Positions 11,051-58,949 of a DNA stretch of 64,000 nt are shown here, one piece after another. Source of the DNA: an uncultured Chlamydiales bacterium (lineage in GTDB: Bacteria; Chlamydiota; Chlamydiia; Chlamydiales; JAAKFR01); contig OY969414.1 of assembly GCA_963699155.1 (NCBI GenBank), forward strand, positions 1,259,757 through 1,323,756. The letters are read 5' to 3'. The position numbers and the translations under genes are program-made. The notes under the pieces were generated by a model. That model was not told the DNA's origin and ran no database searches. It worked only from the letters and a program-made list of their open reading frames with translations. Positions within the stretch are counted from its first letter, which is position 1; each line of letters begins with the position of its first letter.

Positions 11051-13864
11051 TTAAAGACTTTTATTAAAGTGGCTGATTTTTTCTTGGATCAGTATTGATT
11101 GTTCTTGCGCTTGCTTCAATGCGATTTTCTGTTTTTCGACAAGTTCGGGCTGCGCTTTCGCATGAAAGTCGGGGTTAGAAAGCAGCTGCTCCAGCTTTTG
11201 AATCGTCTGTGCGGCTTTTTCTTTTTCTTTTTCGAGTCGTGCCAATTCTTTCTGAAGGAGTTCTTCAGGTAGAGGAACAATCACCTGAAGGCTACCTACC
11301 ATGCCAGTGGCTCCTAGCCCTATTTGAGGGGCTGTTTTGACAAGCTCGATGCGGTTGCATTTGACAAAAGCACGGATCGTTTCGGGATTCTCTTCGTAGT
11401 CACCCACGATAAAGAGATCGGTAGCGAGATGGGGGGGAATGTTCATTTCTCCCCGAATGTTGCGGAGCGTATAGATCATCTCTTCGAGCAGTGCAAAGCG
11501 CGCCTCAATTTCAGGGTGGATATCGGCAGCATTGATGAGTTGGGGATAAGGGGCAACGGCGCAGGAAGGAGAGAGAAGCGATTCAATGGTGGCACTTGTG
11601 TATCCATCTGCATGGGGATTTTTTTGTAGGACTGGGAAGCGGCTTTTCAGCTGTTGGAAGAGCTCTTCAGTGATAAAGGGGGCCATCGGATGAAGAAGAC
11701 GGATGCTGTTACAGAGGAGAGCCACCAGAATTTTCTGTTTGTTCACTTTTTCGGTTGGAGTTCCTTGTTTGCCAAAGAGAAAAGGTTTAGTCATTTCGAC
11801 ATAGTAGGCGCAGAACTCTTTCCAGAAAAAATTGTAAGCAGAAGCTGCAGCTTGATCAAAGGCATAAGTGGCTAGATGGTGGTTGATATCACGGTTGAGG
11901 TGGTTAACGGCAGAAAGAATCCATCGGTCTTCCAAGGCGAGAAGGGAGAGGTCGATCCCTTTTTGAAACTCTTCGCTAGAAAGCCCTTCCAAATTCATAA
12001 AGACAAAGCGGGCCCCATTCCAGATCTTATTGGCAAAGTTTTTGAACTCTTCAAAGCGCCGTCTGTCGAGATCGATTTGAGGTGTCTGGTTGGCGCATGA
12101 GCAGAGAGACATCCGCACCGCATCGGTCCCATATTCAGCGATCATGTCGAGGGGATCGATCACATTCCCTTTCGATTTCGAGAGCTTTTCCCATTTCGAA
12201 GAAACTCCAGGAGGGAGTGGCTTTCCAAGATCATATTCCCGTTTTTCTTCTCCGGTGATGTAGAGGATGGAGCCCTCTTTTTGCTTCCAATAGGATTTGC
12301 CATAGATGAGTCCATGGAGGAAGGTCTCAGGAAATGGCGGAACTCCGAGCGCATATTCTCCCATCAGGATCATACGGGCGACCCAGAAAAAGAGAATGTC
12401 GTGGCCAGTGACCAGCACGCTGGTAGGATAAAATTTCTTCAGCTCAGGAGTCTCTGCAGGCCAACCTAGTGTACTGAAAGGCCACAACGCAGAAGAAAAC
12501 CAGGTATCGAGTACATCGGGGTCTTGCTCCCACATTTCTGGCTCAGCAGCCACTTCTGGAGGCACTCCTTCACCCGCATAACAGATCACTTGCTCGGGAT
12601 TATCTTTGCGGTACCAAACGGGGATGCGATGGCCCCACCAGAGCTGTCGGCTGATGCACCAGTCGCGTAAGTTATCCACCCAGTGAAAATAGGTCGTCTC
12701 CCATGTTTTAGGGATGATTTTGACCTTACCCTCTCGAACAGCGCTCTGGAGCTTGGGTTTAAATGGCTCCATCTTCACAAACCACTGCATGGAAAGATAG
12801 GGCTCGATCACCGCTTTCGAGCGATAAGAGACCCCCACCCGTAAAAGATGGCGCTCTACTTTTTCCAAGAGCCCTAAAGCAGTCATCTCCTTGACGATCG
12901 CCTGCCTCGCCTCTTCTCGGCTCAATCCTTTAAAGGGGCCGCCATTCTCATTGATGAAGCCATCAGGGGTCATGACGTTAATCATCGGAAGCCCATGCTC
13001 AATTCCCATCCGGTAATCATTCGGATCATGGGCCGGCGTGATCTTGACCATGCCAGTACCAAAAGTGGGATCGACATGATGGTCAGCAATCACAGGGATT
13101 TCGCGTCCTAAGAAGGGAAGGCGCACCTTTTTTCCGATCAGACCTGTATAACGGGGATCTTTGGGTGAAACGGCGATCGCCGTATCCCCCAGCATTGTTT
13201 CAGGCCGAGTGGTCGCAATGGTCACATAGCCTGATCCATCGACAAGAGGGTACTTCAAGTACCAGAGCGAGCCCTCGCGCTCTTCATATTCGACCTCATC
13301 ATCTGCAAGAGCCGTCTGCGTCACAGGGTCCCAGTTGACCAGATAATTTCCCCGGTAGATCAAACCCTCTTCAAAAAGCCGCTTGAAGATCGTTTTGACA
13401 GCCCGATTGCACCCCTCATCCATTGTGAAGCGCAGTCGGGACCAATCGCAGGAGCAGCCCAGCTTTTTCAGCTGAGAGAGAATCGTCTTTTCGCTCTTCT
13501 CTTTCCACTCCCAAACCCGCCCGAGAAACTCCTCTCGGCCATATTCGATCCGCCGCTTCCCTTCCGTCGCCATCAGATGGCGCTCTACCACCGTCTGCGT
13601 CGCAATCCCGGCATGATCAGTTCCCGGCACCCAGAGCACCTCATAGCCACTCATCCGCTTCCATCTTATCAAAATGTCTTGCAGCGTACTGACCAGAGCA
13701 TGTCCCATATGGAGCACCCCCGTCACATTGGGCGGCGGCATCACAATGCTATAGGCAGGCTTCCCCGACCCCGGATCAGCCTCAAAAAACCGACCCTCCT
13801 CCCAAAAACCATACCACTTCCCGTCAGTCACCTCGGGATCATAAGCTTTAGCCATCTCTTCCAT
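11051..13864 (-). CDS. valS: Valine--tRNA ligase
   Basis: PPPNVTGVLHMGH, DWCISRQLWWGH, KLSKSKGN; C-terminal coiled coil. Confidence 0.98.
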   Translation of the reverse strand: MEEMAKAYDPEVTDGKWYGFWEEGRFFEADPGSGKPAYSIVMPPPNVTGVLHMGHALVSTLQDILIRWKRMSGYEVLWVPGTDHAGIATQTVVERHLMATEGKRRIEYGREEFLGRVWEWKEKSEKTILSQLKKLGCSCDWSRLRFTMDEGCNRAVKTIFKRLFEEGLIYRGNYLVNWDPVTQTALADDEVEYEEREGSLWYLKYPLVDGSGYVTIATTRPETMLGDTAIAVSPKDPRYTGLIGKKVRLPFLGREIPVIADHHVDPTFGTGMVKITPAHDPNDYRMGIEHGLPMINVMTPDGFINENGGPFKGLSREEARQAIVKEMTALGLLEKVERHLLRVGVSYRSKAVIEPYLSMQWFVKMEPFKPKLQSAVREGKVKIIPKTWETTYFHWVDNLRDWCISRQLWWGHRIPVWYRKDNPEQVICYAGEGVPPEVAAEPEMWEQDPDVLDTWFSSALWPFSTLGWPAETPELKKFYPTSVLVTGHDILFFWVARMILMGEYALGVPPFPETFLHGLIYGKSYWKQKEGSILYITGEEKREYDLGKPLPPGVSSKWEKLSKSKGNVIDPLDMIAEYGTDAVRMSLCSCANQTPQIDLDRRRFEEFKNFANKIWNGARFVFMNLEGLSSEEFQKGIDLSLLALEDRWILSAVNHLNRDINHHLATYAFDQAAASAYNFFWKEFCAYYVEMTKPFLFGKQGTPTEKVNKQKILVALLCNSIRLLHPMAPFITEELFQQLKSRFPVLQKNPHADGYTSATIESLLSPSCAVAPYPQLINAADIHPEIEARFALLEEMIYTLRNIRGEMNIPPHLATDLFIVGDYEENPETIRAFVKCNRIELVKTAPQIGLGATGMVGSLQVIVPLPEELLQKELARLEKEKEKAAQTIQKLEQLLSNPDFHAKAQPELVEKQKIALKQAQEQSILIQEKISHFNKSL

Positions 13865-13971
13865 AATGGCCGGTATCATAGACTTTCAGTGGCGGAATCT
13901 CAACTTCTTTCCTAGAGCTATTATCTCGAAAGGCTATTATTAATAGAGTCTATGACATACTCCAGTTCAAA

Positions 13972-57395: not shown

Positions 57396-57446
57396 GATTC
57401 CTCATGAGAGTAATTTCAACTATTTTATCAAAAAATTATTTAGACA

Positions 57447-58949
57447 TTATAAAGATCTATAGGAAAGAGCTTCTGCGATGTGCTCTTCCGAGATCGTGGT
57501 TGTCTCTGAGAGATGGGCGATGGTGTGGGCCACTTTGACCAGTTTGTGGTGGGCCCGGGCTGAGAGATTGAAAGCCTCGACAGCTTCTTTGAGGAGGCTT
57601 TTGCAGGCGGGGCTGAGGGTATGGAGGGGAGGTAGGGGGTGGGAGCGAAGCCGCTCACGGGTAGCTGTCACACGCTTTTGGATGAGGTTTGAGGACTCTT
57701 CGGAGGGTGCTCCGACCATTTCTTGGTAAGTGATGGGAGGGACTTCGATGTGGAGGTCGATTCTGTCGAGGAGGGGGCCGGAGATCTTGCGGCGGTAGCG
57801 GTCGATCTGGGCTGGGGTATCGCTACAGGGCTTTTCAGGGTGGCCGTAGTAACCACAGGGACAGGGATTCATGGCGGCGATGAAGATGACATCGGTGGGG
57901 AAGCGGATCTTGCCGCCGGCACGGCTGACAGTGATTTCGCGGTCTTCGAGGGGCTGACGGAGCACCTCGAGGGTGGCTCGACCAAATTCGGGCAGCTCGT
58001 CTAGAAAGAGGACCCCTCTATGAGCTAGGGAAACCTCGCCTGGCTTAGGTGGTGAGCTACCTCCGATCATACCGACATAGCTGATGCTATGGTGTGGGGA
58101 GCGAAAAGGGCGCTTGGTGATAAGGCCCGAGCCTTGTCCGGCAAGCGAATGAATATTGGTGACCTCGAGTGCCTCTTCTGAAGAGAGCGGCGGCAAGATC
58201 CCTGCAAAGGCTTTGGCCAGCATCGTTTTTCCTGTTCCTGGCGGGCCCGACATCAAGACATTGTGGCCACCCGCTGCAGCGATCTCCAAAGCCCGTTTGG
58301 CATGTGTCTGACCTTTGATTGATGCCATGTCTAGCAACACTTCTACGCTCCCGGGCTCAGCGGAGGCGATGTCAAACAACCCTACGGCCTGCGCGCTTCT
58401 TGCATTTGCGGTTTGAGCTGCTGGCACATGCAAACGCTGCCCTTTGAAGTAGCTCACAAGCTCTGTCAAGTGGCGTAAAGGGACGATCTCGATCTCTTTG
58501 ACAAGTGCCGCTTCTTGATAGTTGTCAAAGGGAAGCAGCACGCCTCTCTTGCCTAGCTTTTTCGCCAGGAGGGTGAGGGCGAGGGCGCCATGGATGGGGC
58601 GAATGTCGCCCGATAGGCTCAGTTCGCCGCCAACGAGGTAGTTTTCTAGAGTGGAAGTGGGAAAGGCTCCCTGGCCTGCTAGGATGCCTACAGCGATAGG
58701 AAGATCATAAAAAGCGCCTACTTTTTTGATTTCTGCAGGGCCGAGATGGACCATGCCTGAGATGCCTTCCGATTTGAATCCTGAGTTTTTTATCGCATGA
58801 ATGACGCGGTCCTTGGACTCTTTGACAGCGGTGTCGGGTAAGCCGACGATGCGAAGAAGGGTTTGTGAAGGGATGAGGTCGATCTCTACGTCGATGAGAA
58901 CGGCTTCTAAGCCGATGAAAGCTGCTGAGAAGAGCTTAACGAGAGGCAT
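57447..58949 (-). CDS. comM: YifB/ComM Mg-chelatase-like AAA+ ATPase
   Basis: IVGLPDTAVKES, GPPGTGKT, RPFRSPHH, FLDELPEF, NPCPCGY, SGPLLDRID. Confidence 0.93.
   Translation of the reverse strand: MPLVKLFSAAFIGLEAVLIDVEIDLIPSQTLLRIVGLPDTAVKESKDRVIHAIKNSGFKSEGISGMVHLGPAEIKKVGAFYDLPIAVGILAGQGAFPTSTLENYLVGGELSLSGDIRPIHGALALTLLAKKLGKRGVLLPFDNYQEAALVKEIEIVPLRHLTELVSYFKGQRLHVPAAQTANARSAQAVGLFDIASAEPGSVEVLLDMASIKGQTHAKRALEIAAAGGHNVLMSGPPGTGKTMLAKAFAGILPPLSSEEALEVTNIHSLAGQGSGLITKRPFRSPHHSISYVGMIGGSSPPKPGEVSLAHRGVLFLDELPEFGRATLEVLRQPLEDREITVSRAGGKIRFPTDVIFIAAMNPCPCGYYGHPEKPCSDTPAQIDRYRRKISGPLLDRIDLHIEVPPITYQEMVGAPSEESSNLIQKRVTATRERLRSHPLPPLHTLSPACKSLLKEAVEAFNLSARAHHKLVKVAHTIAHLSETTTISEEHIAEALSYRSL

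Follow-up and report, generated by a model that had tools for sequence, protein, structure and literature searches.

Why should conserved genes switch to C-ending codons where they adjoin accessory DNA? The question is raised by a stretch of 64,000 nucleotides from an uncultured Chlamydiales bacterium (the window: bases 1,259,757-1,323,756 of a single-contig genome of 2.40 Mb with 47.5% G+C). The NCBIfam names obtained in the window are those of Chlamydia-type genes, among them a V-type ATPase, PknD, a doubled UvrA of 1860 aa and a chlamydial-type LpxL model. A sequence-only reading of this DNA had noticed that core genes next to several accessory blocks are strongly skewed at synonymous sites, C-rich on the plus strand at left flanks and G-rich at right flanks. 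We called genes with a self-trained hexamer model (2080 genes, 88% coding) and defined transcription units by gene order, strand and gap size only. Third positions were counted in frame, C3 and G3 being the shares of C-ending and G-ending codons. In scans, a C-tract consists of 50-codon windows with at least 60% C3 and a G-rich tract has at least 50% G3; in comparisons of junctions and of genomes, a gene counts as having a C-tract when 50% or more of its last 60 codons end in C. This genome is designated G000, the congener with which it was compared G002, another member of the genus G003, and members of other genera G012, G005 and G016.

The skewed core-gene ends are real. In pyk (28394-30151, plus strand), on the left flank of the 30.2-36.5 kb block, a C-tract covers 29723-30148 with 94 C-ending codons out of 142; the last 61 codons comprise 46 ending in C, 6 in G, 4 in T and 5 in A, and the best 78-nt window holds 34 C and 9 G. 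This tract is peculiar to G000, as the 11 orthologs examined carry 8-31 C-ending codons in the corresponding 61. On the left flank of the 54.7-57.4 kb block, cydB (53691-54725, plus strand) has a tract at 54381-54722 (79/114), with 70 C-ending codons among its last 100 and 26 out of 26 consecutive ones at 54618-54695; its stop codon is overlapped by the convergent neighbour. The right flanks were confirmed in frame as well, and all of them are 3' ends of minus-strand genes. To the right of the 13.9-16.8 kb block, the tract of a NudE-like Nudix gene (16854-17402) takes up most of the gene (16857-17198, 76/114; 89/148 over 16857-17300), its best 78-nt window containing 44 C and 8 G. The last OppA-like substrate-binding gene (36604-38142), bordering the 30.2-36.5 kb block, has a tract at 36607-36978 (71/124; 65/108 over 36607-36930). 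A GT4 glycosyltransferase gene ('waaG-like', 48384-49487), bordering the 47.4-48.4 kb block, has one at 48387-48743 (75/119; 70 C and 5 G among 111 codons over 48387-48719; best 78-nt window of 38 C and 6 G). Finally, a comM/YifB-like gene (57447-58949), bordering the 54.7-57.4 kb block, carries two adjoining tracts in its 3' third, at 57498-58013 (69/119 and 30/50; 97/174 over 57450-57971). The genome mean of C3 is 0.30; at least 46 C-ending codons in 61 occur in 0.2% of 576,388 in-gene windows, and the binomial probability is 3e-13.

At 5' ends the sense strand is biased the other way. The start of valS (11051-13864, minus strand), on the left flank of the 13.9-16.8 kb block, is a G-rich, C-poor tract at 13427-13861 (71 G-ending codons out of 145) and so C-rich on the plus strand. 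Its first 121 codons end in G 62 times, in T 32 times and in C 15 times, a G count reached in 0.03% of 458,530 in-gene windows, and the best antisense 78-nt window has 36 C and 9 G. The 5' end of uvrA (20670-26252, minus strand), at the left of the 26.3-28.3 kb block, uses G- and T-ending codons more weakly, as had been claimed (26091-26252; 22 G, 17 T, 9 C and 6 A in 54 codons). For the lpxL-like gene (minus strand), whose weak G/T-ending tract at 47252-47374 had also been listed, the outcome depends on an uncertain start: the bias holds from 47374 (16 G, 17 T and 7 C in 41 codons) and is weak from 47323 (11 G and 8 C in 40). The block at 8.9-11 kb had been offered as a counter-example and is indeed little skewed on either side (last 60 codons of agcS, 21 C and 20 G; of valS, 12 C and 16 G). 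A coarse table of GC skew shows the same local reversals. As far as the sign goes, the skew does point to the block as proposed, whatever the orientation of the gene. All the left flanks listed are plus-strand 3' ends or minus-strand 5' ends and all the right flanks minus-strand 3' ends, and by sign the proposal is indistinguishable from another rule: the sign is fully predicted by the gene end, 3' ends being C-rich and 5' ends G-rich in the sense strand.

The variable nature of the blocks was established against G002, in which the window is syntenic but inverted. Blocks at 9.4-11 kb, 26.3-28.3 kb and 30.2-36.5 kb are specific to G000. The second of them (26264-28245) separates uvrA from pyk, which in G002 are divergent neighbours 274 bp apart; the third (30196-36533), between pyk and the oppA-like gene, contains seven called genes with no NCBIfam match and corresponds to a gap of about 0.8 kb in G002. 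At 13.9-17.4 kb and 54.7-57.4 kb both genomes hold DNA, which is non-homologous. Between valS and the unit of the Nudix gene and pknD (13972-16853), about 5 kb of non-homologous DNA occupies the same place in G002, and between cydB and comM (54719-57251) three genes without a reciprocal best hit in G002 are matched by three other genes there. The 47.4-48.4 kb block measures 1.06 kb in G000 and 0.26 kb in G002. The Nudix gene is the last one after pknD, whose stop it overlaps by 14 nt, and tblastn found no homolog of it in the 60 kb syntenic stretch of G002; instead of being a core gene, it may have joined the pknD unit in this lineage only. Promoter-like sigma-70 matches number 34 over 13-33 kb, against 17.7±4.0 in shuffled sequences, and many of them lie on the minus strand within 26264-28300 and 32000-33000, inside two of the accessory blocks.

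We then asked whether these tracts belong to a general anatomy. The whole genome contains 255 C-tracts in 226 genes, with a median length of 82 codons, and 175 of them touch the stop, lying within 15 codons of it. A same-strand gene follows within 30 bp in 12 of these 175 cases, compared with 767 of the 2080 genes overall; the remaining ones face a tandem (79) or a convergent (84) neighbour. Among 557 operon-internal genes, 3% have 50% or more C3 over their final 60 codons, against 14-34% of the genes in five unit-terminal classes, and for the 25 longest runs of C-ending codons the end falls in the final 15% of the gene in 20 cases. Across the 962 genes with 300 codons or more, C3 is about 0.26 close to the start and climbs to 0.34 towards the stop, and the skew (C3-G3)/(C3+G3) goes up from about 0.06 to 0.26. 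The rise is alike in the 484 leading-strand and the 478 lagging-strand genes and is therefore not replication skew; a replication-type switch of GC skew would depend on replication direction, and here no such dependence is seen and intergenic skew is about zero. Chlamydia does have replication-linked GC skew, strand-specific codon usage and a third-position asymmetry with sign flips along the chromosome. The flips described here differ, since they recur every few kilobases at gene ends, are alike on leading and lagging strands and are absent intergenically. The opposite pattern is weaker: G-rich tracts number 61, of which 24 touch the start, and 21 of these 24 are in the first gene of a unit; unit-first genes start with a skew near 0 and operon-internal genes at about 0.13. 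In the 84 tract genes followed by a gap of at least 150 nt, C3 stays at 0.65-0.72 from -180 to -30 nt and is 0.31 in the last five codons.

The connection with accessory DNA was examined by synteny with G002 (1.2 of its 2.6 Mb; 550 reciprocal best hits, whose identity has a median of 71%). Conservation of neighbours is thus judged against half of one relative. Under this test the link noticed in the window holds for the whole genome: unit-terminal genes carry a 3' C-tract at 50 of 121 non-conserved neighbours and at 9 of 73 conserved ones (odds ratio 5.0, p=2e-5). The difference is found in convergent pairs alone (33/84 versus 3/26, p=0.008) and in tandem pairs with a gap of at least 30 (24/67 versus 6/48, p=0.005), where 'conserved' pairs may include true operons. 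Divergent pairs behave likewise for 5' G-patches (10/50 versus 1/74). Compared with the interior of the gene, the skew at non-conserved junctions changes on average by +0.159 at the 3' end and by -0.115 at the 5' end, about twice the change at conserved junctions. A composition proxy agrees, tracts being present in 82 of 152 genes beside an atypical gene and in 47 of 205 beside a typical one. Tracts occur in 137 of 411 old core-like genes compared with 6 of 257 accessory-like genes. Besides this link, the tracts mark the boundaries of transcription units as such: 12% of conserved unit boundaries have one, compared with 2 of 163 operon-internal ends with conserved adjacency (about 1%). The G002 orthologs of G000 tract genes are weakly enriched (C3 is 0.347 over the final 60 codons and 0.274 inside the gene), and this excess correlates between the two genomes (Spearman 0.30-0.35). 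Comparison of the same junctions in G002 as a natural experiment was uninformative, the effect in G002 being too weak overall.

The spectrum of changes was determined on site-class sets defined by junction and not by tract, as a guard against selection bias. At the 3' ends of non-syntenic junctions, four-fold sites have 0.552 C and 0.130 G, compared with 0.404 and 0.203 in gene interiors, and A and T are lower too. Two-fold pyrimidine (Y) sites have 0.524 C against 0.366, and in Lys, Glu and Gln codons G gives way to A (0.431 versus 0.469, p=0.004). The 5' ends are the mirror image, with more G at purine-ending and four-fold sites and a shift from C to T at Y sites (0.315, p=5e-4). The spectrum is thus that of a true C/G skew. 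Within tracts, where C3 is 0.622, every codon family shifts to C (71-89%), and synonymous first positions shift as well, Leu from TTR to CTC and Arg from AGR to CGC, while Ser moves to TCC; amino-acid usage drifts slightly towards C-rich codons. The G+C share of third positions (GC3) is raised in both tract types.

Sampling of six further genomes, which apart from the Escherichia coli control are relatives and hence not independent samples, revealed a lineage-specific pattern. A tract was present in 20.6% of 131 terminal genes of G000 (400 kb sampled; rho broken), in 22.9% of 48 in G012 (171 kb), in 8.3% of 157 in G003 (400 kb) and in 3.0% of 401 in G002 (1.2 Mb), and in none of 113 in G005 (376 kb), of 129 in G016 (400 kb) and of 111 in E. 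coli K-12 (250 kb). The five relatives have an intact rho. Operon-internal genes had a tract in 0-2.5% of cases in all seven genomes, and tract strength follows the general sense-strand excess of C3 over G3 in the genome. Two of the other genera sampled in the family, and E. coli, thus lack the pattern.

What could write such tracts? The sequence-only reading had considered deamination of a repeatedly single-stranded outward-running strand, selection for C-rich, G-poor RNA resembling Rho utilization (rut) sites, and biased gene conversion; on sequence properties the second would fit best. We tentatively propose, without claiming even odds for it, that the tracts arise by selection on the C-versus-G skew of the RNA at transcription-unit boundaries and that Rho reads this skew. 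In such a scheme the last 60-150 codons of the final gene of a unit would be recoded to C wherever a synonymous change allows it, and slightly away from G, yielding a C-rich, G-poor stretch of 200-450 nt with the sequence properties of a rut site, and RNA polymerase running past the stop codon would be released before it reached the neighbouring DNA. At the 5' end the opposite bias would make the sense RNA a poor substrate for Rho and the antisense RNA heading for the junction a good one. The signal would be kept within the conserved gene because the adjacent intergenic DNA is replaced whenever accessory genes are gained or lost, and would thus be strongest in old core genes bordering variable DNA. 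The position, statistics, site-class spectrum and taxonomic distribution of the tracts are observations; we infer that RNA is the molecule read, that Rho is the reader and that insulation is the benefit. A further step, that in some chlamydia-like lineages long-resident core genes beside accessory hot spots carry the strand-polar C>G tracts as portable insulators of transcription, which remain in place as the adjoining DNA changes, a 'boundary code' from which plasticity zones could be read in codon usage, is possible and more doubtful.

The composition of the tracts agrees with this proposal. We applied the sequence criteria of RhoTermPredict, as they appear in passages of PMC6407284. In each of the six 3' tracts the best window of 78 nt has a C/G ratio between 3.7 and 6.3, where at least 70-80 nt with C/G > 1 is expected, and whole tracts consist of 0.35-0.40 C and 0.14-0.19 G. 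Over the final 240 nt of terminal genes, 4.5% of the windows have a C/G ratio of 3 or more, compared with about 1% elsewhere. Chains of 5-7 cytosines with the 11-13 nt spacing of rut sites are also found, which is weak evidence, being near-automatic when every third base is C. According to the passages available of PMC13323073, stretches longer than 150 nt in which C exceeds G are a mark of Rho targets, a translated gene became subject to Rho termination in Bacillus subtilis through synonymous recoding alone, and avoidance of Rho shapes codon usage (Dierksheide et al. 2026). In Salmonella, Rho and NusG are reported to stop outside transcripts that invade acquired islands (PMC6797219; Bossi et al. 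2019). Sites consisting of a hairpin plus a T-run did not exceed shuffled sequence in 40 kb of the window (18 versus 22.3±5.1 and 30 versus 24.6±4.6). As a score for terminators they were discarded, since at a free energy (dG) of -8 or below they follow 38% of operon-internal and 43% of terminal genes.

Several findings weigh against a role of Rho, a main one being the state of rho in G000. The gene (G000:C1 ~89,800-91,200; L013:680-2101) is broken up by an in-frame TGA and five indels. Three of the indels are +1 insertions that lie, together with the TGA, in a stretch of about 90 nt; the others are one -1 deletion and one further +1 insertion. A search of G000 for a second copy found none. 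Moreover, a rut site is expected on ribosome-free RNA, and the tracts are translated, reaching in frame to some 15 nt short of the stop codon, beyond which the DNA is unskewed even at gaps of at least 150 nt (0.23-0.26 C, 0.18-0.25 G). E. coli, a wide user of Rho, has no tracts, nor do G005 and G016 with their intact rho; therefore Rho alone does not produce the pattern. Hairpin-plus-T sites show no significant complementarity with tracts (15% of 106 versus 21% of 387, the score being a poor predictor). Finally, the 5' and 3' shifts are similar in size, which a DNA-level process centred on the junction predicts more naturally.

How should the broken rho be understood? Frames are split in 4 of 126 orthologs of G002 proteins in G000, a low level of pseudogenes or of residual assembly indels, and against this background five indels in 1.4 kb are a real excess. 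If the damage is real, the tracts of G000 would be relics or would be read by something else. The pieces are 93% identical to G002 over residues 295-451 (the ATPase part), intact members of the genus being 86-88% identical overall. As the pieces are as conserved as intact orthologs, and as the 3' piece has a C-tract of its own when read in the ancestral frame, the damage should be recent or an assembly fault, and Rho should have been working when the tracts arose. Among the 11 public sequencing runs listed for the locus, none contained more than 0.07 of its words, and no RNA data set with this DNA was listed. nusG is intact in G000. Of 31 genomes searched, G000 among them, 28 have an intact rho that scores above the curated cut-off. 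Loss of Rho as the cause of the pattern was rejected, because G012 and G003 have tracts with an intact rho and the tract in the 3' piece predates the breaks. Among the other relatives, the matches in G010 are interrupted by TGA stops only (4 in pyk and 9 in rho) and the pyk matches in G001 mostly by TGA with a few TAA and TAG, indicating either poor assemblies or TGA read as a residue.

The strongest competitor acts on DNA. The ends of core genes would repeatedly serve as homology arms in the exchange of accessory DNA, and strand-specific heteroduplex repair or repair synthesis would drive the strand bound for the junction to C. Such a process would readily account for tracts that are 3-5 times commoner at non-syntenic junctions, convergent pairs included, for 5' and 3' shifts of similar size and for the raised GC3 of both tract types. 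If heteroduplex forms only in homologous DNA, it would also confine tracts to conserved coding sequence and keep them out of intergenic and accessory DNA. A mobile palindromic element is enriched at the same junctions. However, GC-biased conversion never drives sites to A or T, and here the sites barred from the favoured base do move that way, G to A at Lys, Glu and Gln codons of 3' ends and C to T at two-fold Y sites of 5' ends, with G falling as C rises. The biased conversion put forward in the sequence-only reading is disfavoured on these grounds. In addition, the extra C of four-fold sites comes in equal measure from A, G and T, and we know of no repair bias with this property. The tracts at 9 of the 73 junctions conserved in G002, compared with 2 of 163 operon-internal ends, also speak against a process tied to exchange. 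We consider this DNA-level explanation unlikely, well behind selection on RNA read by Rho.

The palindromic element just mentioned is about 110 bp long (arms TTCAACGCAAAGACGCCAAGAC...) and is present at 72 mostly intergenic loci of G000 (for example G000:C1:83,861-84,116 and 124,654-124,832) and at about half this density in G002. Immediately after C-tract genes and before G-tract genes it is enriched about five-fold. Of 148 tract genes, 17 have a copy within 200 nt, compared with 21 of 901 others; most tracts are without it and the window has no copy. It was therefore rejected as their cause.

Other uses of skewed RNA are somewhat less likely again. G-rich RNA leaving AT-rich, promoter-rich blocks could form R-loops on the C-rich template and stall, an insulation against outward transcription, or C-rich 3' ends could protect unit-terminal mRNAs from 3' exonucleases. 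These ideas draw on the same skew and position data as termination by Rho, are consistent with the excess of promoter-like matches mentioned above (34 versus 17.7±4.0 over 13-33 kb, many in the 26.3-28.3 kb and 32-33 kb blocks) and need no Rho, which is broken in this assembly. On the other hand, the orientation of the neighbour is irrelevant, stop-touching tracts being found in 84 of 686 genes with a convergent and 79 of 627 with a tandem neighbour, and an element that protects or blocks could evolve more freely in the untranslated DNA, where nothing is seen. G-runs of the kind typical of strong R-loop or G4 initiators were not noticed either, although no search was aimed at them. By sequence alone, the R-loop and other RNA uses of the skew are inseparable from its reading by Rho.

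Deamination, transcription-associated or of a single-stranded outward-running strand, is largely excluded and in our view quite improbable. It gives the right sign on both sides, and the two-fold shifts are transitions in the expected directions. However, deamination is dominated by C>T, raises A on the C-rich strand and needs no transversions; the implied A>G is far larger than C>T, four-fold A is not raised, and C is gained from A and G by transversions. In addition, no plausible equilibrium of local mutation would give a local C3 of 65-100%. Intergenic DNA is under the least constraint and yet unskewed, which argues against a simple mutational cause, although turnover of that DNA weakens the point. 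This explanation, the first of the three that had been offered, thus has to be disfavoured.

Shallow gradients of codon usage within genes, at the level of the gene, were reportedly described by Hooper and Berg in 2000 and by Qin et al. in 2004 for E. coli and other genomes. Codon use varies with position in both cases; here it does so as discrete tracts of 60-100% C3 found only at unit ends. The ribosomal-protein cluster (located through rplB, the other gene identities being assumed from position) has a C3 of 0.254, below the genome value of 0.294, and C-ending codons are therefore not the translationally preferred set. Translational optimisation or an ordinary intragenic gradient, largely excluded too, is scarcely credible: it would explain that mean C3 rises along genes and that the effect is confined to coding sequence, but the ribosomal-protein cluster does not prefer C, operon-internal ends lack the effect, and the effect depends on what adjoins the gene and is absent from E. 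coli and two related genera.

If selection for termination by Rho is nevertheless the cause, how does it relate to known systems? The passages available of PMC13323073 describe a 'hidden code' of Rho that shares with our tracts long, C>G pyrimidine-rich RNA, a signal in third positions and 5' ends at which the sense strand is protected and the antisense exposed. That published code is a gene-wide purine bias avoiding Rho, whereas here the bias reverses within the unit, from a G-rich start to an extreme C end; moreover, the tracts are concentrated at junctions with variable DNA and occur in an assembly with a frameshifted rho. The same passages describe no positional gradient and no gene-end tracts. 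The Rho/NusG barrier of Salmonella, in the available passages of PMC6797219, embodies the same idea of stopping outside transcripts at island borders; it differs in resting on genetic and transcriptomic work, in involving H-NS, in depending less on rut binding and in that these passages describe no signal in coding sequence. Full-text literature searches returned no description of C-ending gene-end tracts or of polar skew at island borders.

Termination or insulation through the tracts would mean that in these bacteria gene ends use their synonymous positions for a strong regulatory code tied to position, extending the finding that Rho shapes codon usage. It would explain how transcripts end in compact genomes without a detectable excess of hairpin terminators, and it would provide a marker, drawn from the DNA itself, of transcription-unit ends and of hot spots of gene gain and loss. 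Codon-based measures, such as expression proxies, detection of foreign genes and synonymous rates, would be distorted at gene ends. If a repair bias linked to recombination were responsible instead, the tracts would record the exchange of accessory genes as a polar mutational footprint of a new kind.

Some minor observations complete the picture. Neisseria-type DNA-uptake sequences were considered and rejected, no motif reaching more than 5 copies per strand in the genome and none occurring in the window. About 30% of the C-tracts genome-wide are internal to genes. valS has a second, internal G-rich tract at 12764-12916 (minus strand; 25 of 51 codons ending in G), far from both gene ends. The gene at 59021-60343 (minus strand), absent from the list of the sequence-only reading, has a 3' C-tract at 59024-59200 (35/59), though its junction with comM is conserved in G002.

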